64,000 bases of DNA from an uncultured Candidatus Saccharibacteria bacterium (GTDB lineage Bacteria; Patescibacteriota; Minisyncoccia; Phycocordibacterales; PALSA-1337). The translations under genes and the position numbers were made by a program. Shown here one piece after another: positions 2,746 to 58,360 of the stretch; position 1 is the first letter of the stretch; each line of letters opens with the position of its first letter. The notes below the pieces were generated by a model. It had not been told where the DNA came from. It did not search any database and saw nothing but the letters and a program-made list of their open reading frames with translations. The stretch spans positions 1,081 to 65,080 of the forward strand of contig CAYHLX010000004.1 in assembly GCA_964357605.1 (NCBI GenBank), given 5' to 3'.

Positions 2746-3556
2746 TTTCCAAAATATAAAAGAAATATTTCCACTCTCTATTTTTAAAGGAATTATATAG
2801 GTCAGAACCCTTAATTCCTGAAAAATCTACGGAGACTTTCTGAAATATTTTTGGTACTAGTTTTTTAATTGTATTCATCCTACGTTCACTATCTTTATCA
2901 AGAGCACTTACAACATTCATCGTTATGTCCTCATCTTTCACAATCCTCATGCCAGAATTAAGCAAATCTGATTTAAGTTGCTCCATTTTTTCTACCACAC
3001 GATAATCTGTAATAAGTAAACATCCTTTAGGGCGAAGGACTCTTCTAACCTCCTTAAGAAATTGAGGAAAATCCTCATAATGATGGGAAGTTTCAACATT
3101 TATTACAACATCAAATGAATTATCTAGGAAAGGAAGATTATGTGCATCAGCAACAATGAAAGATAGATTTTGAATTGATTTATATTTATCCTTGTTAAAA
3201 GTAATGGATCTTTTTGTAATATCACTTCCAACAACTTTTTTAGGTGACAAATATCTAGCAATGTAAGAAGCCCCCCCACCGCGACCACACCCAATCTCAA
3301 GTATATCCTTACCATACACATCAATACTTGAGGCAATGTGATTATATAACTGTAACGAATACCTATCATTTTCATCTATAGTTTCTAGTGGTAAATTACT
3401 ACCATCGTCATAACCATAATTCATAGTCATGATTTCATTATTTTTATCAAGAACACCTACTATTGAATACCAGCTATTTGATAAAAGTTTATTTAGTGGT
3501 TTGTATTCATAAATACTCATGAATAAACTATCCAAAAAAGAAGTGATTATTTTCAT
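2741..3556 (-). CDS. Class I SAM-dependent methyltransferase
   Basis: Motif I LEIGCGRGGGASY, acidic DI post-motif, DVVINVETSHH. AT-rich relative to its neighbours. Confidence 0.7.
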   Translation of the reverse strand: MKIITSFLDSLFMSIYEYKPLNKLLSNSWYSIVGVLDKNNEIMTMNYGYDDGSNLPLETIDENDRYSLQLYNHIASSIDVYGKDILEIGCGRGGGASYIARYLSPKKVVGSDITKRSITFNKDKYKSIQNLSFIVADAHNLPFLDNSFDVVINVETSHHYEDFPQFLKEVRRVLRPKGCLLITDYRVVEKMEQLKSDLLNSGMRIVKDEDITMNVVSALDKDSERRMNTIKKLVPKIFQKVSVDFSGIKGSDLYNSFKNREWKYFFYILEK

Positions 3557-51132: not shown

Positions 51133-51447
51133 TTAGAGCAATGTAACCTTAAGTTTAGCATCCAGTGCTTTTGCTACGCGCTTCAAAAACTTAATGGAGG
51201 GATTGTAATTCCCTGCCTCTAGGCGAGAGATGACGGATTGGTCACTACCAATCTTTTTGGCGAGCTGTTTTTGGCTCATGTCTTTTTCGATACGTCTGCG
51301 AATGATCGAGAATTCTAATTCGAGAGCATCATAAGCCGCTTTGACTCCAGGTCTTTTCATAACCTCACGAGACCAGTCTTCATAACGAATAAATTTTAAC
51401 TTTGGATTTAATTTTATCATAGGATGATTATATGCTATATAAGTCAT
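51133..51447 (-). CDS. XRE-family HTH antitoxin (HigA-like)
   Basis: C-terminal MSQKQLAKKIGSDQSVISRLEAG HTH. ATGA overlap with the upstream toxin. Confidence 0.65.
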   Translation of the reverse strand: MTYIAYNHPMIKLNPKLKFIRYEDWSREVMKRPGVKAAYDALELEFSIIRRRIEKDMSQKQLAKKIGSDQSVISRLEAGNYNPSIKFLKRVAKALDAKLKVTLL

Positions 51448-51752
51448 ATTTGCAACCACTTATATTTTATTTTTATAAGATCTAATTCCCTTCTTGTTAT
51501 CTTTTCAGTCTTTTTTTCGAATCCGTGAAAAATAATAGCAGCTTCATGCGAGAATATATAGATAAGACGAATATTATGTACTCCGCCAACCCGCAACTCA
51601 AAAATACCCGGCAATATGTTTTTGCTATACGGCATTCTAATATTGTAGCCATATTTTTTTAAGAGATCAAAATATCCTCGACAGCGTCCAACTGCTCCAT
51701 CTCCAAGATTATCCATAAAATTTTGCACTTCCTCCATTACTATTATTTCCAT
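51444..51752 (-). CDS. RelE/ParE-superfamily toxin (HigB / Gp49-like)
   Basis: IRLIYIFSHEAAIIFHGFEKKTEKI. Toxin-first gene order. Confidence 0.6.
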   Translation of the reverse strand: MEIIVMEEVQNFMDNLGDGAVGRCRGYFDLLKKYGYNIRMPYSKNILPGIFELRVGGVHNIRLIYIFSHEAAIIFHGFEKKTEKITRRELDLIKIKYKWLQI

Positions 51753-52443: not shown

Positions 52444-53433
52444 ATGAACAAAGAACAAATAATCTCTTTTATAAAGGAACAAGTGGCAGCGGGCAAAATC
52501 TCAAACGGTGATTTGTTAAACATGACTCAAAACACAGTTACAGAACACAAAGAAGAAGCTCCCACCAGAAACCTCACTAGTGTTTTCTATGCCATAGGAG
52601 GAGTCATCGCCGTTATCGGAGTAGCCATACTAGTGGCCCAGAACTGGGAAGAAATCGGTTTTGCTGGAAGAATCTTGGTGACCTTAGGCATTTCCCTGGT
52701 AGCCTACGTAGTTGGCCTCGTCATGAGAAGCCCTGAATCCCGAGTCCTTTCTCAGGTCATGTTTACAATCTCTGTAGCTCTAGCCCCAATGGGAACATTT
52801 ATCCTCCTACAAGAAGCTGATGTCAATTTTACCTTGAATGTGCAAATCTTGATTTCCCTGGTGTTAGCAGTCATCTACGGAGTAGCCCTGCTCATCAGCA
52901 AAAGAAATATTCTCTCCATCTTTACTCTCGCCTTCCTAACTTGGACATACTTCGCGGTCGTCTTAAAAATATTTGATATTGAAAATCTAAGGGACATGGA
53001 TATTCTAAAGTGGACAGTGATGATTCTCGGTTTTTCTTACCTACTCATCGCTTATGGATATGGAGTGCTAAGCAAGAGAGCAACCGACATGATAGACCGA
53101 AGAGAAAAATCCGGTATCAAAAGTATTTTATACGGCCTAGGCACCATCGGGGTTTTAGGAGCGGGAATATCTATCGGCGGTGCTTTTGACCTCATCTTTA
53201 TTGCCTTCATCTTTGCTTTCTTTTACGGAAGCGTCTACCTCAAGAGTACGGGTATACTCATTCTCGCCAGCTTATTCCTCATTGGACACATCATCAAACT
53301 AACAGCGAGATACTTCATTGACTCCATCAACTGGCCAGTCGCACTCATCATTACCGGTTTTGTAGTCATCGGTATAGGATATCTAACTTATTATTTAAAC
53401 AAGAAATTTATTTCTTCTCCTCGAGTCTCTTAA
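52444..53433 (+). CDS. Hypothetical polytopic membrane protein
   Basis: About 8 TM helices. Confidence 0.4.
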   Translation: MNKEQIISFIKEQVAAGKISNGDLLNMTQNTVTEHKEEAPTRNLTSVFYAIGGVIAVIGVAILVAQNWEEIGFAGRILVTLGISLVAYVVGLVMRSPESRVLSQVMFTISVALAPMGTFILLQEADVNFTLNVQILISLVLAVIYGVALLISKRNILSIFTLAFLTWTYFAVVLKIFDIENLRDMDILKWTVMILGFSYLLIAYGYGVLSKRATDMIDRREKSGIKSILYGLGTIGVLGAGISIGGAFDLIFIAFIFAFFYGSVYLKSTGILILASLFLIGHIIKLTARYFIDSINWPVALIITGFVVIGIGYLTYYLNKKFISSPRVS

Positions 53434-53680
53434 GAGCGGACATGATTCTAGATTTGTAACGTCCAGCGGAGTTGGCTTTGATGTATTTTCTTTTTGCACC
53501 TTTGTCTAAAGCTTTATAAAGAGACGGGACGAGAGCTTTGGCTTCAGCAATCTTATTTTCTGACACGAGTTTCCTAAATTTCTTCATAGGAACGTCAATA
53601 GCGGCCTTGGTTCTAAGGTTATAAACTCTTTTTCTGGATGAGGCACGTAAAGCTTTGTGAGCTGATGATGTGATCGGCAT
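53408..53680 (-). CDS. rpsT: 30S ribosomal protein S20
   Basis: Basic helical protein ...SAHKALRASSRKRVYNLR... Start taken at the internal Met. Confidence 0.75.
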   Translation of the reverse strand: MPITSSAHKALRASSRKRVYNLRTKAAIDVPMKKFRKLVSENKIAEAKALVPSLYKALDKGAKRKYIKANSAGRYKSRIMSALKRLEEKK

Positions 53681-53749
53681 ATATTGTTTTTGTATCTCAA
53701 AACTATCATATACCTTTAAAAAAGACAAGGTTCAGGCTATGATAGAGTC

Positions 53750-54319
53750 ATGATCGCCAAACTAATAGGAAAAATTGCCCATATAGACCCCAAATACCTG
53801 GTTCTAGATGTTGGCGGGGTTGGATACAAAGTTTCAACCACCTCCGATATTATGACCAAGATAGGCCGTGAGGAGGAGCTGGTAACTCTCTGGACATATC
53901 TCGCTGTCCGTGAAAACGCTTTGGATTTATACGGATTTCTAACCCTCGCCGAGCTCGGTTTCTTTGAGTTACTTATCACCATCTCAGGTATCGGTCCAAA
54001 AACAGCCCTTGGAATACTCAACTCTGCTTCTGTGCATGCCTTAGAAACAGCCGTTCAGACTGGGGACACTTCCCATCTGACCAAGGTTTCGGGTATTGGT
54101 AAAAAGATTGCAGAGAAAATTGTGATGGAATTAAAAGATAAGGTGGAAAAGATGACAGGAACCATAAAAATGAATAATGACGATGGAGATGTTGTAGAGG
54201 CCCTAAAAACCCTGGGTTACAGCCCACAGGAAGATAGGGATGTGATGAAAAAATTACCTAAAGATTTAACCAAAACAGGCGATCGGGTAAAAGCAGCTTT
54301 AAAAATACTTGGAAAATAA
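53750..54319 (+). CDS. ruvA: Holliday junction helicase subunit RuvA
   Basis: MIAKLIGKI...LDVGGVGYKV and the HhH motifs GIGPKTA / SGIGKKIAEKI. Confidence 0.9.
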   Translation: MIAKLIGKIAHIDPKYLVLDVGGVGYKVSTTSDIMTKIGREEELVTLWTYLAVRENALDLYGFLTLAELGFFELLITISGIGPKTALGILNSASVHALETAVQTGDTSHLTKVSGIGKKIAEKIVMELKDKVEKMTGTIKMNNDDGDVVEALKTLGYSPQEDRDVMKKLPKDLTKTGDRVKAALKILGK

Positions 54320-55354
54320 TTAGTCATAAAAAAGCCTTGCTATAGAATCTTTAATTTTCTCACTTTTACAATGAGAGAGCATACCGAGATAAGATTGCAT
54401 TGATTGTTCAAGAAATTCTTTGGTGATTTTTCCTTCTTCGTATGAACATTTTAGTTTTCGTATTTTATTGAGCATCCTTCTCTTGGTTCTCGTCCTCAAA
54501 ACTTTGTGGTGTGGTAAGGATACATAGCCAAGAAAATCCGTCCCTGTGTTCAATTTTCTTATAGTTACCTTATTTGGATGAAGTTCCATCCGAAGATTAT
54601 CTGTTAAAAATGATTGGATTTTTAAAATACACTCTTGTAAAAAGTCTCTGGAGTTATGAACGATAACAAAATCATCACAGTAACGAATATAATATTTCGT
54701 TTTGAGTGTATGTTTGCAAAATTGATCTAGCTCATTGAGATAGATATTTGCGAATACCTGGCTAGTTACATTGCCCAAAGGCAAACCTTTTCCCTGCGTC
54801 ACCTTAAATGAATCTATGATTTTATTAAGAAGATCTAAAAGCTCCTCGTCATGTACCCTCTTTCCCACCAGAGATTTGAGAACTTGGTGATCAATTGAAT
54901 CAAAGAATTTTCTGATATCGCATTTAAGAACAAAAGCTTGCTGTGTATAATTTCTAGAAACCTTTCTTGAAAATTGTTCCAATCTCTCTACTCCCTTGTG
55001 AGTACCTTTGTCATCTCTTGACGCAAAAGAATCATGAATAAAAGTCTTATCAAAAACCTGATATAATGCCTGATACAGAGCTTGGTAAAGGACCCTATCA
55101 CGGACACTCGCTTTGTGAATTTTCCTCAATTTCGGATCTTGGACATAGAATGCCTTGTATGGATCAGGCTTCCACTTACCAATAATTAGTTCGTTGCAAA
55201 GACTAAAAAGATTTTCCTCCAAATTAAACTCAAATTCTGCAACTTCTTTTTTTGATCTTTTTCCTTTTCTAAATCTTTTCCACGCCCGAAACAGATTTTC
55301 AAGACTTATTACATCACAAAAATTCAAACTATGACGCCCCCCCCCCGAACACAC
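54320..55354 (-). CDS. Diversity-generating retroelement reverse transcriptase
   Basis: 344 aa with RT motifs, YCDD box, and the DGR-specific motif-4 signature LGNVTSQVFANIYLNELD. GTG start directly followed by a G10 tract. Confidence 0.85.
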   Translation of the reverse strand: MCSGGGRHSLNFCDVISLENLFRAWKRFRKGKRSKKEVAEFEFNLEENLFSLCNELIIGKWKPDPYKAFYVQDPKLRKIHKASVRDRVLYQALYQALYQVFDKTFIHDSFASRDDKGTHKGVERLEQFSRKVSRNYTQQAFVLKCDIRKFFDSIDHQVLKSLVGKRVHDEELLDLLNKIIDSFKVTQGKGLPLGNVTSQVFANIYLNELDQFCKHTLKTKYYIRYCDDFVIVHNSRDFLQECILKIQSFLTDNLRMELHPNKVTIRKLNTGTDFLGYVSLPHHKVLRTRTKRRMLNKIRKLKCSYEEGKITKEFLEQSMQSYLGMLSHCKSEKIKDSIARLFYD

Positions 55355-55475
55355 CCTCTCTATTATTGAAAAGATTCGCCTGCTTCATGCGGATATTTAT
55401 ATCATAGGACAGAGACTTCCTAAACAGCACAAACTTGGTATTCATCATGATTTAGAGAGAGCAATTGGAAAGATT

Positions 55476-55703
55476 ATGGAATTGACCATAGAAGCTAGAT
55501 TTCTAGTGGCCAAAAATAAGATTAGGGTATTAGAAATTACTCGAATCAAGAATGAAGTATTGAAACACACCATTCGTACAGAATACGAGTTTAAAATTAT
55601 AAATGAAAAGGAATACTTGAGGCTTGCTGGTCAAATTGTAGAAATCTCAAGAATGATTAACGGCTGGATAAGGTACCTAACAGAAAAAAGTCATGTTAGT
55701 TAG
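55476..55703 (+). CDS. Truncated Avd-like four-helix-bundle protein (75 aa), antisense to the RT/TR transcript
   Basis: C-terminus LAGQIVEISRMINGWIRYL resembles the Avd / S23-IVS family C-terminal helix (bAvd ...EVGRILGSWIARV). Confidence 0.4.
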   Translation: MELTIEARFLVAKNKIRVLEITRIKNEVLKHTIRTEYEFKIINEKEYLRLAGQIVEISRMINGWIRYLTEKSHVS

Positions 55704-55728
55704 ACAATGACTTTTTCTGCAAAAACTT

Positions 55729-55841
55729 CCAAGCGAGCCCCGATGTTCGGATTGCAATTGTCACGATAGTTCCAGTTGAAGTTGGCCTGGGCGTTGTTGA
55801 CGTTCCAGTTGCCGTTAGCCACCTTCTTGTCACCAGGCAAC
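55729..55841 (-). repeat. DGR template repeat (TR)
   Basis: 113 bp homologous to 56122..56234. 22 of its 31 minus-strand adenines are substituted in the other copy. Confidence 0.8.
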
Positions 55842-56092
55842 GCACTAGTATCACCTCTTTTCCCTATCACCAAAAATCATTTTCATAATTTTTTGTGTTT
55901 TGTGTATCCATTTGTATTCAATGGCATTGTATAAAAGATGACACGCAGTTTTTATATTATGGCAAATTGCTATTCTCTGTATATAGGGAACCAATTTTAC
56001 AACCACCATCATCAGTATAAATAAAAGAAAAGTGGCGTGCAATATTTCAGCACACCACTTTATTGAATTCCCCAAGCCCAAGGGAAAAAGAG

Positions 56093-56953
56093 TTAGGACT
56101 TGCGAAGGGCAAAGAACTCTACCAAGCGAGCCCCGAGGCTCGGAGAGCAAAGGCCACGAGAGTGCCAGCGGAAATCGGCCTGAGCGCTGTCGACGACCCA
56201 GTAGCCGTGCGCCACCCGCTCGCCACCAGGCAACCGATCATCAGGAAACCATGTGAGCGTTTCCCCAGAATCAAGATGCTCGTCGGTGATTAGGAAGTGG
56301 AGATTATCCGCATCTGACCAACCAAACAGGTTAATCCAGTTCTGATTCTTCTCAACCTTGACTTCGAGGAGTCCGTCCGGCGACTTGGCATTTTTGCCCA
56401 AGGTATCTGCATCAGGCCGAATAGATCGCTTGATGAAACCGAGTTGAGAAATATCTAAACCCCTAGAGTTCTTGTATTTCATCACGTCTGCTTCCTCGTA
56501 AGAGGCGTTCATGCCGAGCTTCATCTTCCAGTCAAGCGCCATCCTATTGGTGGCACCGGCGGGACGAAAAACTGGCATGATGTCGGTCCGGGCCAAGACT
56601 CGGTCATCCATCATGAACATGTCCCGGAAGATGACTGTCTCGCCCGTGAGGAACTTGTGAAGTTTCTCTCGAGCTTCCAGCCATTCTGCGAAGGTCTCGC
56701 CGGTGGCGGTGAGAATGAGTGGTTCGGGAGTTGGGACCTTTGCAGATTCCACGACCTCAACCCTGCTCACCTCTCCTGGAAGGACGAAACCTCGACGCAA
56801 CACTTCCTGCAGTTGAGGCAGGTTTTGTTCGTAGTGTTCCAATTGCTCAATCGTGAGAACTTGAGGCATATTGGAGACCAGTTTTAGGCCGAGGTTAAAT
56901 CCACGCACAATGAGTGCTGGATCCTGTGTTTCAATCAAGGGTATACCTTTCAT
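56093..56953 (-). CDS. DGR target (variable) protein with VR at the C-terminus. GC-rich (about 50%).
   Basis: 286 aa. The last ~38 codons are the VR. C-terminus WSDADN...GYWVVDSAQADFRWH resembles C-type-lectin-fold DGR variable domains (inference). Confidence 0.7.
   Translation of the reverse strand: MKGIPLIETQDPALIVRGFNLGLKLVSNMPQVLTIEQLEHYEQNLPQLQEVLRRGFVLPGEVSRVEVVESAKVPTPEPLILTATGETFAEWLEAREKLHKFLTGETVIFRDMFMMDDRVLARTDIMPVFRPAGATNRMALDWKMKLGMNASYEEADVMKYKNSRGLDISQLGFIKRSIRPDADTLGKNAKSPDGLLEVKVEKNQNWINLFGWSDADNLHFLITDEHLDSGETLTWFPDDRLPGGERVAHGYWVVDSAQADFRWHSRGLCSPSLGARLVEFFALRKS
56122..56234 (-). repeat. DGR variable repeat (VR)
   Basis: 25 mismatches to TR, 22 of them at TR adenine positions. 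The shared 3' end CCAAGCGAGCCCCGA is an IMH-like GC-rich segment. Confidence 0.8.
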
Positions 56954-57094
56954 AGGTGTTTCCTTTCACTTTTCATGACCGACTGCGAGCTTAGACGGTA
57001 GTCGTTTTATTTATTGCCATGAATTCCACCCTAGATATTATCACAAATCTACACATAAGTCAATGGTAATAAAACCCTTGAAATAGGGCATAAT

Positions 57095-58360
57095 ATGGCC
57101 ATGGAACGCATTCTTTTTAGTATTAAAAAACTCATCCCTTCCCGCCTTTTTACCCTCTTTCAACCTGCTTACCACTATTCCCTCGCCTTTCTCGCCGCTC
57201 TCATCTATCGTTTTCCATCTAGGAAAATAAAAGTCATCGGAGTTACTGGAACAAAGGGAAAAAGTTCAACGACAGAAATTATCAATGCCATCATAGAAGA
57301 AGCTGGGTACAAGACCGCCCTTTCAAACACCATCAGGTTTAAGATTGCCGAACACTCTACAAACAATCTCTATAAAATGTCTATGCCCGGCAGATTCTTT
57401 GTTCAACGATTTTTACGACAAGCGGTGCAGGCCAAATGTGACTATGTGATCCTAGAAATGACTTCTCAGGGCACGCTTCAATACCGCCACAAGTTCATAG
57501 ATCTAGATACTTTTGTCTTTACCAATCTTTCGCCTGAACACCTAGATTCTCACGGCTCATATGAAAAATATATAGAAGCAAAAGTAAAGATCGCCTGCGA
57601 AATGATCAAATCAAAAAAACAAAATAAAACTATTATCGCCAATAGTGATGACAAAGAAGCTCAGAGATTCCTAGATTGTGAAGCAGATAAAAAAGCCACT
57701 TATTCAGCAAAAGATGTAGAGCCTTACGAAATTCTTTCTAGTGGTATAAATTTCACCTTCGCCGGACACAAAGTTCATTCGGAACTTTCTGGACTATTTA
57801 ATCTATACAATTTAGTGGCAGGAATTACTTGTGCTAAAAATTTAGGCATCGCTGATGAAATAATCGTGAGGGCGGTGGAAAAATTTAGCGACATAAAAGG
57901 CCGGGTAGAAAAAATAGACGCTGGACAAGATTTTACCGTGGTCGTTGATTACGCCCACACTCCCGATTCTCTAGAGAAGTTCTACCAAGTCTTTGAAAAA
58001 ACTAGAAACATTTGCGTACTAGGAGGCACGGGAGGTGGCAGAGATAACTGGAAAAGAAAGGAAATGGGTAGGATCGCTGATAATTATTGTAAAGAAATTA
58101 TTCTCACCGATGAGGATCCGTACGACGAGGATCCAAATAAGATCGTTAGTGATGTCGCAGAAGGTATCAAGAGTCAAACCCCCACGATTATCATGGATAG
58201 AAGAGCGGCAATCAAAGAAGCTTTGAGACGGGCTAAGACGGGTGATTCTGTGCTGATCACTGGCAAAGGAACTGACCCATATATCATGGGGCCAAACGGG
58301 ACAAAAACACCCTGGAGTGATGCTCAAATCGCCAAAGAAGAGTTAGAGCGTCTTGCCTGA
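57095..58360 (+). CDS. murE: Mur ligase family protein (MurE-like)
   Basis: GVTGTKGKSS P-loop, DYAHTPDSL, and GGTGGGRDNWKR. Confidence 0.6.
   Translation: MAMERILFSIKKLIPSRLFTLFQPAYHYSLAFLAALIYRFPSRKIKVIGVTGTKGKSSTTEIINAIIEEAGYKTALSNTIRFKIAEHSTNNLYKMSMPGRFFVQRFLRQAVQAKCDYVILEMTSQGTLQYRHKFIDLDTFVFTNLSPEHLDSHGSYEKYIEAKVKIACEMIKSKKQNKTIIANSDDKEAQRFLDCEADKKATYSAKDVEPYEILSSGINFTFAGHKVHSELSGLFNLYNLVAGITCAKNLGIADEIIVRAVEKFSDIKGRVEKIDAGQDFTVVVDYAHTPDSLEKFYQVFEKTRNICVLGGTGGGRDNWKRKEMGRIADNYCKEIILTDEDPYDEDPNKIVSDVAEGIKSQTPTIIMDRRAAIKEALRRAKTGDSVLITGKGTDPYIMGPNGTKTPWSDAQIAKEELERLA

Follow-up and report, generated by a model that had tools for sequence, protein, structure and literature searches.

The plus-strand interval 55331..55703 of the 64,000-nucleotide stretch of DNA analysed here (the window) is an avd gene of full length that belongs to a chromosomal DGR of the CPR/Patescibacteria, and this gene is frameshifted in the assembly. 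The frameshift lies in a run of ten cytosines (C10, 55337..55346, plus strand; G10 in the sense of the reverse transcriptase, RT) that occupies avd codons 3-5. Comparison of the window with related loci suggests that this run is probably a selected, hypermutable tract that makes avd, and hence DGR mutagenesis, phase-variable, the window holding the OFF state. The wider proposition, that in most CPR/Patescibacteria DGRs the first avd codons contain a dedicated hypermutable repeat and that their hypermutation machine is phase-variable as a consequence, stands about evenly balanced.

The identity of the element was established from its repeats and its RT. The TR (55729..55841, minus strand) pairs without gaps with a VR (56122..56234, minus strand) that is located at the 3' end of the target, or variable protein, gene (56093..56953, minus strand, 286 aa in the ORF list). 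Minus-strand alignment of 55700-55880 with 56085-56270 gives an ungapped repeat of 113 nt with 25 mismatches, 22 of which fall at TR adenines, which is the signature of a DGR. The 3' end of the TR, TCGGGGCTCGCTTGG, is GC-rich, identical in the VR and IMH-like. Pfam and NCBIfam profile searches with the target gene gave no match. The RT (54320..55354, minus strand, 344 aa when counted from a GTG at 55354) matches RVT_1 (PF00078) with an E-value of 5.3e-24 in a profile search, and the sequence LGNVTSQ, read from its translation, conforms to the DGR-type motif [I/L/V]GxxxSQ. Its best NCBIfam match is a group II intron RT model, below the cutoff, the libraries used containing no DGR-specific RT model. 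The TR and the RT are separated by a spacer of 374 nt (55355..55728), inside which avd lies on the plus strand.

An earlier note on this DNA, made from the sequence alone, had rightly placed the TR and the RT on the minus strand (running from 55841 to 55729 and from 55354 to 54320, respectively) and an Avd-like ORF of 75 aa (55476..55703) on the plus strand inside the spacer. It had also judged this layout to be atypical, and in this it was mistaken: the layout is B3, the type characteristic of the lineage, with the target gene and its VR, the TR, an opposite-strand avd converging on the TR, and the RT head-to-head with avd. In the searchable part of the article by Wu et al. (2018, PMC5758913), B3 is written TR-(avd)-RT, the parentheses indicating that avd is on the reverse strand, and makes up 90% of their CPR DGR set. 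Order and orientation are identical in the window, with the target and VR upstream, and the host lineage, as judged from the relatives, is CPR/Patescibacteria like that of the B3 DGRs. The searchable text of the same article (PMC5758913) mentions neither a repeat tract, nor a frameshifted avd, nor a shared hairpin. The relatives compared here comprise 80 species-representative genome loci, all of them from CPR/Patescibacteria MAGs with RT identities of 45-65%, and 80 metagenome loci; the RT family of this CPR clade has more than 7,500 homologues. An opposite-strand Avd-homologous ORF, head-to-head with the RT, is present in 130 of the 131 loci that have at least 450 nt upstream of the RT. The earlier note would have abandoned its reading if relatives had carried a canonical avd elsewhere and lacked this ORF, which is the reverse of what these loci contain.

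In the window, the DGR adjoins ruvA (53750..54319), rpsT (53408..53728) and a small two-gene module (51133-51752, minus strand) that resembles a toxin-antitoxin pair, the homologous ORFs in locus L169 being annotated Gp49 and HTH_3. The RT-ruvA-rpsT-HTH/Gp49 neighbourhood is the same in a relative with 69% RT identity, which indicates that the DGR is chromosomal and vertically kept.

The 75-aa ORF, the form in which the NCBI record annotates the gene (P0001), corresponds to the C-terminal 60-61% or so of Avd. The profile search that the earlier note had proposed does connect it to the Avd family, through the C-terminal part only: it matches positions 42-104 of NF033474 (E = 3.7e-7) and positions 50-106 of PF22296 (E = 2.6e-5). 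Taken alone, it falls below the cutoffs of all the Avd models (PF22296, NF033474, TIGR02436). The ORF had been described as truncated, but the avd frame is open from 55335, just after a stop at 55332-55334, over 122 codons, and matches the Avd profile from end to end. The extended frame covers positions 1-104 of the 104 of NF033474 (E = 6.6e-15; 55.3 bits, for an equivalog cutoff of 80) and positions 3-106 of the 107 of PF22296 (bAvd; 42.1 bits, for a gathering score of 40), and scores 23.1 bits against TIGR02436, whose cutoff is 24. The portion located 3' of the tract (55347..55703) consists of 118 codons and the stop. Between 55335 and 55476, the avd frame contains no ATG, GTG or TTG. The 5' end of the gene reads ATG (55331..55333), then ACG, then C10. 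With nine cytosines instead of ten, the ATG at 55331 is in frame with the Avd body and opens a 123-aa Avd; with ten, it is one base out, and the gene has no in-frame start codon of its own, in contrast to the C9 sister strain described below. Only a 75-aa ORF is called because the C10 run, one C too many, splits the ATG from the Avd body, and this ORF appears half-length because ORF calling begins at the first internal ATG after the +1 homopolymer frameshift. The finding as first stated is therefore a known architecture combined with an ORF-calling artefact, while the cause of the artefact is probably a new regulatory variant of a known system.

The product of the restored frame is, as Avd proteins are, a basic protein encoded next to a DGR RT and TR, here between the two. 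Its predicted pI is 9.69, and the accessible portion of Wu et al. (2018, PMC5758913) gives a pI of 9.5 ± 0.7 for Avd proteins. A single-sequence AF2 model comprises four helices (residues 2-22, 31-57, 61-81 and 87-115) with a low pLDDT of 57.5. The top PDB matches of this low-confidence model in Foldseek are 8ub7_B and 4dwl_D, with E-values of 0.2-0.3 and a TM-score of about 0.5; both are Avd chains of the Bordetella phage BPP-1 DGR, and the model lends the identification weak support. A single-sequence search of the PDB yielded only chance matches, and a profile search of the PDB returned 4dwl (Avd) and 2gsc at E-values of about 0.5, which are not significant; by sequence similarity alone, the resemblance of the window Avd to 4DWL (E = 0.65) is likewise not significant. 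The BPP-1 Avd (PDB 4DWL, 8UB7) is, like the window Avd, a basic protein of about 120 aa with four helices, these being predicted at low confidence in the present case. The BPP-1 element (mtd-VR, avd, TR, brt) also shares with the window the [I/L]GxxxSQ type of RT and an adenine-specific TR/VR pair.

The C10 run is the sole C or G run of at least 8 nt in the 64-kb window, whose GC content is 39.7%. If the limit is lowered to 7 nt, the window has just one further C or G run, a C7 at 3271-3277. A tract of 7 to 13 cytosines is found at the avd site in 99 of the 130 B3 loci, and it is always C in the avd sense. Among these 99 tracts, 7 have a length of 7, 11 of 8, 28 of 9, 27 of 10, 17 of 11, 6 of 12 and 3 of 13. 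C or G runs of at least 8 nt number 92 at the 130 junctions, as compared with 4 in 709 kb of flanking DNA from the same loci; the 5' coding region of avd is thus enriched over background in a repeat of mutable length, as expected of a contingency gene. Among the 31 loci that lack a C-run, 7 have a long repeat of another type in its position: (CA)13, (CA)14, (CA)16, (CT)10, (TC)9, (GA)18 and (GCCA)10. The loci with such replacement repeats are L109, L149, L115, L148, L039, L040 and L079, and in them the repeat lies just upstream of Avd helix 1.

Variation in tract length is observed between very close relatives. The closest relative of the window, L001 (78% RT identity), has the same flanks, the sequence ATG AAT C9 and an intact 123-aa ORF. 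By contrast, C10 and the frameshift of the window are found in L167 and L168, contigs of the L001 strain that come from different runs within one project; they are 99.87% identical to L001 and differ from it only by the C indel and one SNP over about 1.55 kb. Near-identical contigs of this strain thus show either a C9 ON allele or a C10 OFF allele with an intact downstream ORF, a length polymorphism of the kind expected of contingency genes. Three pairs of loci with flanks that are 96%, 94% and 87% identical have tracts of 11 and 10, 11 and 10, and 10 and 12 cytosines, respectively. When contigs with the same RT were compared, the P0021 and P0005 groups were monomorphic and the P0004/L001 group alone was informative.

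A difference of one cytosine between assemblies could reflect a homopolymer consensus error, and some of the related MAGs may be long-read assemblies, which are prone to such errors; both points weigh against phase variation. In its strict form, this objection states that the organism is truly C9, that its avd is ordinary and intact, and that no switching takes place. Homopolymers of at least 10 nt are indeed error-prone, the nearest relative (L001) does have C9, and the scaffold of locus L012 (CAYTVT010000019.1) breaks into Ns directly after its C12 tract at the avd/RT junction, a break that is consistent with either length heterogeneity or poor coverage at this place. An error is nevertheless improbable: two runs of the sister strain independently gave C10, the same cause would require mistakes in two thirds of the 98 independent assemblies, and the conservation of the tract, or of another type of repeat, at this codon position would be left unexplained. 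Taken by itself, the window could be accounted for by a homopolymer error, but the pattern across the family could not. A different difficulty for phase variation comes from sets of identical strains that are all at one stable OFF length. Loci L162-L165, from four JGI samples, all have C7 and are out of frame, C8 being the length that would be ON; loci L169-L171 all have C11 and are also out of frame, C10 being the length that would be ON. Each set may consist of re-assemblies or of samples from one site. In both sets, gene callers give either no avd or just a 77-aa fragment.

The relation between tract and reading frame was analysed in 98 loci with a C-run. A canonical start codon located upstream of the tract is in frame with the Avd body in 33 of them (34%), a proportion that does not differ from one third (binomial test, p = 1.0). 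In 19 others the sole in-frame start lies at most 17 nt downstream of the tract, and the remaining 46, among which the window, have no usable in-frame avd start. In each of these 46 loci a start codon, which in most cases is ATG, lies a short way upstream in a different frame, and an upstream ATG is present in exactly one frame in 84 of the 98 loci. The ORF that follows the tract has a median length of 119 aa in the out-of-frame loci and 118 aa in the in-frame loci (minimum 111), and the Avd profile scores are 139.5 and 138.6 bits, respectively (p = 0.71). This equality of ORF length and profile score between OFF and ON loci indicates that avd is not decaying, contrary to one of the options considered in the earlier note. 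The repeat-less loci behave differently, as all 24 have an in-frame ATG and an Avd of 105-150 aa (Fisher's exact test, p = 4e-10). An ATG situated 4-20 codons upstream of helix 1 is used by these 24 loci and by all the in-frame relatives. The possibility that avd normally starts at a non-canonical codon (ATT at 55362 or 55365, CTG at 55380) was rejected since the starts of the relatives are ATG.

These data also bear on the possibility that the ORF is a pseudogene, left by an avd in decay, or has arisen by chance within a structured spacer RNA. The missing in-frame start codon in the window and the presence of a conserved hairpin in the spacer would fit such an origin. However, the 122 codons of open frame match the Avd profile from one end to the other, OFF loci equal ON loci in intactness and in score, and 130 of 131 relatives have the ORF. 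As to the RNA, folding of the whole spacer (55355-55728), which the earlier note had suggested for the minus strand, gave z-scores of -0.66 for that strand and -0.98 for the plus strand, neither of which is unusual, and the conserved hairpin amounts to just about 40 nt next to the TR, at the avd stop codon. A Rfam search of 54200-57100 gave no credible match. A pseudogene or a coincidental ORF is hence barely credible. The third option that had been offered, a genuinely rearranged accessory gene, comes closest; the arrangement, on the other hand, is not unusual.

Contingency loci of Neisseria, Haemophilus, Campylobacter and Helicobacter carry homopolymer or tetranucleotide tracts in their 5' coding region. 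The avd loci resemble them in several respects: the tract occupies the opening codons of the ORF, it has a length at which repeats are mutable, both ON and OFF alleles exist among close relatives, the ORF of the OFF alleles is intact, and different types of repeats are interchangeable at one site. They differ from them in that the gene is a retroelement accessory factor and not a surface or restriction-modification gene, and in that the tract is common to two head-to-head genes; moreover, switching of avd is here proposed from sequence comparison. The location of the tract in the early codons, its mutable length, the polymorphism between nearly identical genomes, an ON:OFF ratio of about 1:2, the intact OFF alleles and the interchangeable repeats together form the comparative pattern that is standard for simple-sequence contingency loci, and on this ground the run is read as a probable phase switch.

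Such a switch would operate as follows. Slipped-strand mispairing would alter the length of the C-run and thereby move avd in and out of frame, C9 being the presumed ON length and C10, as found in the window, the presumed OFF length. Wu et al. (2018, PMC5758913) state that, in the DGR that has been studied, the RT cannot do without Avd as its partner. If this applies here, switching of avd would switch mutagenic retrohoming, which would be active in one part of the population and inactive in the other. The RT itself would be buffered against the switch by start codons on both sides of the tract, namely a GTGTG that serves at G9 and G10 and a TTG downstream.

Little is known of how DGRs are regulated in nature, and a cost is to be expected if adenines in a host gene are mutagenized constitutively. 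If the phase-variation reading is true, the contingency tract conserved in avd would provide a simple answer to the question of DGR regulation for a large CPR clade. It would place a stochastic ON/OFF switch atop a targeted mutator, so that a subpopulation alone diversifies its surface or ligand-binding protein. Since the ON or OFF state can be read in metagenomic reads, it could be correlated with VR diversification across samples. There is also a practical consequence: gene callers and DGR pipelines report such an avd as missing, truncated (75-83 aa) or uncalled, and the counts of 'Avd-less' DGRs are inflated as a result. A full-text search of the DGR literature retrieved no report of a repeat-controlled avd or RT, an earlier description being nonetheless possible.

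Out-of-frame alleles could also be expressed through slippage at the level of the RNA, either because the polymerase stutters on the C/G run or because tRNA-Pro undergoes a +1 or -1 shift on CCC-C. Some messages or ribosomes would then always be in frame, the genomic length would drift, and Avd would be produced constitutively at a low, tuned level. This explanation, which I regard as unlikely, accounts for a frame that bears no relation to tract length (33 of 98) in an ORF that stays under selection. Polymerase slippage is established for A/T runs over a range of lengths within which tracts of 9-13 fall, and CCC-C is a known error-prone site for a +1 shift, exactly the shift that the window needs. 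Transcriptional or ribosomal slippage could give Avd at any DNA length, which is an argument against phase variation. Against slippage stand the DNA-level length differences between nearly identical contigs, as well as the dinucleotide and tetranucleotide repeats, which are of the type known to slip in DNA and are ill suited to slippage by ribosomes. Slippage fits most of the data, and it is compatible with phase variation, the two not being mutually exclusive. In endosymbionts, frameshifted genes are rescued by polymerase infidelity at homopolymers, for example poly(A) tracts. Those genes and the present loci have in common that they belong to small-genome, host-dependent bacteria and that conserved homopolymers are found in intact out-of-frame ORFs. 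However, the endosymbiont tracts are A/T and scattered over many genes, whereas a single C/G run or other repeat at a fixed position of one gene family is involved here.

Because avd and the RT are head-to-head, the tract also lies at the start of the RT gene. A GTGTG at 55350-55354 (minus strand), just 5' of the G-tract in the RT sense, contains overlapping GTG codons in two frames, one of which is in frame with the RT body at G9 and the other at G10; the same arrangement is found in L001 near positions 1258-1262. A TTG at 55327, 9 nt 3' of the G-tract, is an alternative RT start. Since the GTGTG keeps the RT startable at both G9 and G10, the tract would toggle avd and not the RT in this clade. 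In the wider set, the RT is less exposed to the tract than avd: start codons upstream of the G-run are available to the RT in two or three frames in 46 of 98 loci, a start downstream of it exists in 42, and in 29 the sole RT start is located 5-40 nt 3' of the tract. The distance between the tract and the conserved N-terminus of the RT is tight, about 22-29 nt in most loci.

This geometry raises the possibility that the tract is a functional nucleic-acid element, for instance a Shine-Dalgarno-like or 5'-UTR element for the RT, a promoter spacer serving the two head-to-head genes or a motif within the DGR RNA, the avd frameshifts being a tolerated by-product. Its fixed strand polarity, with C always in the avd sense, the tight distance to the RT N-terminus and the 29 loci whose sole RT start follows the tract all favour such an element, as does the window, in which the TTG comes 9 nt after G10. 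This is a Shine-Dalgarno-like spacing, and the G-tract could act on RT translation in addition to, or instead of, switching avd, which counts against phase variation. A cis-acting element of this kind is improbable all the same: the existence of (CA)n, (CT)n, (GA)n and (GCCA)n substitutes argues against a sequence-specific motif, lengths from 7 to 13 are more variable than a binding site would lead one to expect, and frequent knock-outs of avd as a by-product would be costly given that the gene is otherwise strongly conserved.

Dual coding, in which the run would encode Pro-Pro-Pro in Avd and Gly-Gly-Gly in the RT on opposite strands, was also considered as the cause of the run. It was rejected because it accounts neither for tract lengths indivisible by three, nor for the spread of lengths from 7 to 13, nor for the ATGs that are out of frame, nor for the other repeat types. 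When recoded as CCACCTCCG, the tract specifies the same Pro-Pro-Pro without a homopolymer. About half of the repeat-less loci (e.g. L025, L120 and L058) have a CAT at most 12 nt before the avd ATG, sometimes in the form CATATG, and this CAT is a candidate RT start on the other strand. In these CAT/ATG loci, avd and the RT are back-to-back with almost no intergenic DNA, which places the promoters and ribosome-binding sites of each gene inside the other. A promoter consensus scan found promoter-like sites to be no commoner than in shuffled sequences.

The part of the spacer that is conserved as a structure is located at the other end of avd. Folding of the window spacer predicts a hairpin at 55680-55720, composed of an A-tract, a stem and a U-tract, which straddles the avd stop codon and lies 8 nt downstream of the TR in the RT sense. 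RNAalifold predicted no base pairs from a MAFFT alignment of the hairpin that was ragged, and a simple terminator scan did not call it, the hairpin having too few G-C pairs and a weak T-run. Across the 130 loci, however, its mean z-score is -2.78, as compared with -0.11 for a control segment inside avd. In an explicit count of the structure across loci, 64 cells had changed on both sides of a pair, against 24.7 ± 5 after shuffling, and none of 500 shuffles reached as high a value; when the register was slid as a control, the covariation peaked at 0. By its composition and position, the hairpin resembles a bidirectional intrinsic terminator common to the converging TR and avd. The avd of BPP-1 lies upstream of the TR and runs in the same direction, and priming there requires the TR-brt spacer, which is a structured RNA, whereas in the window avd is antisense within the TR-RT interval and just the terminator-like hairpin adjacent to the TR is conserved. 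This hairpin may also correspond in function to the spacer structure next to the TR in the Bordetella element, and it suggests that the TR of B3 DGRs may be a short transcription unit of its own.
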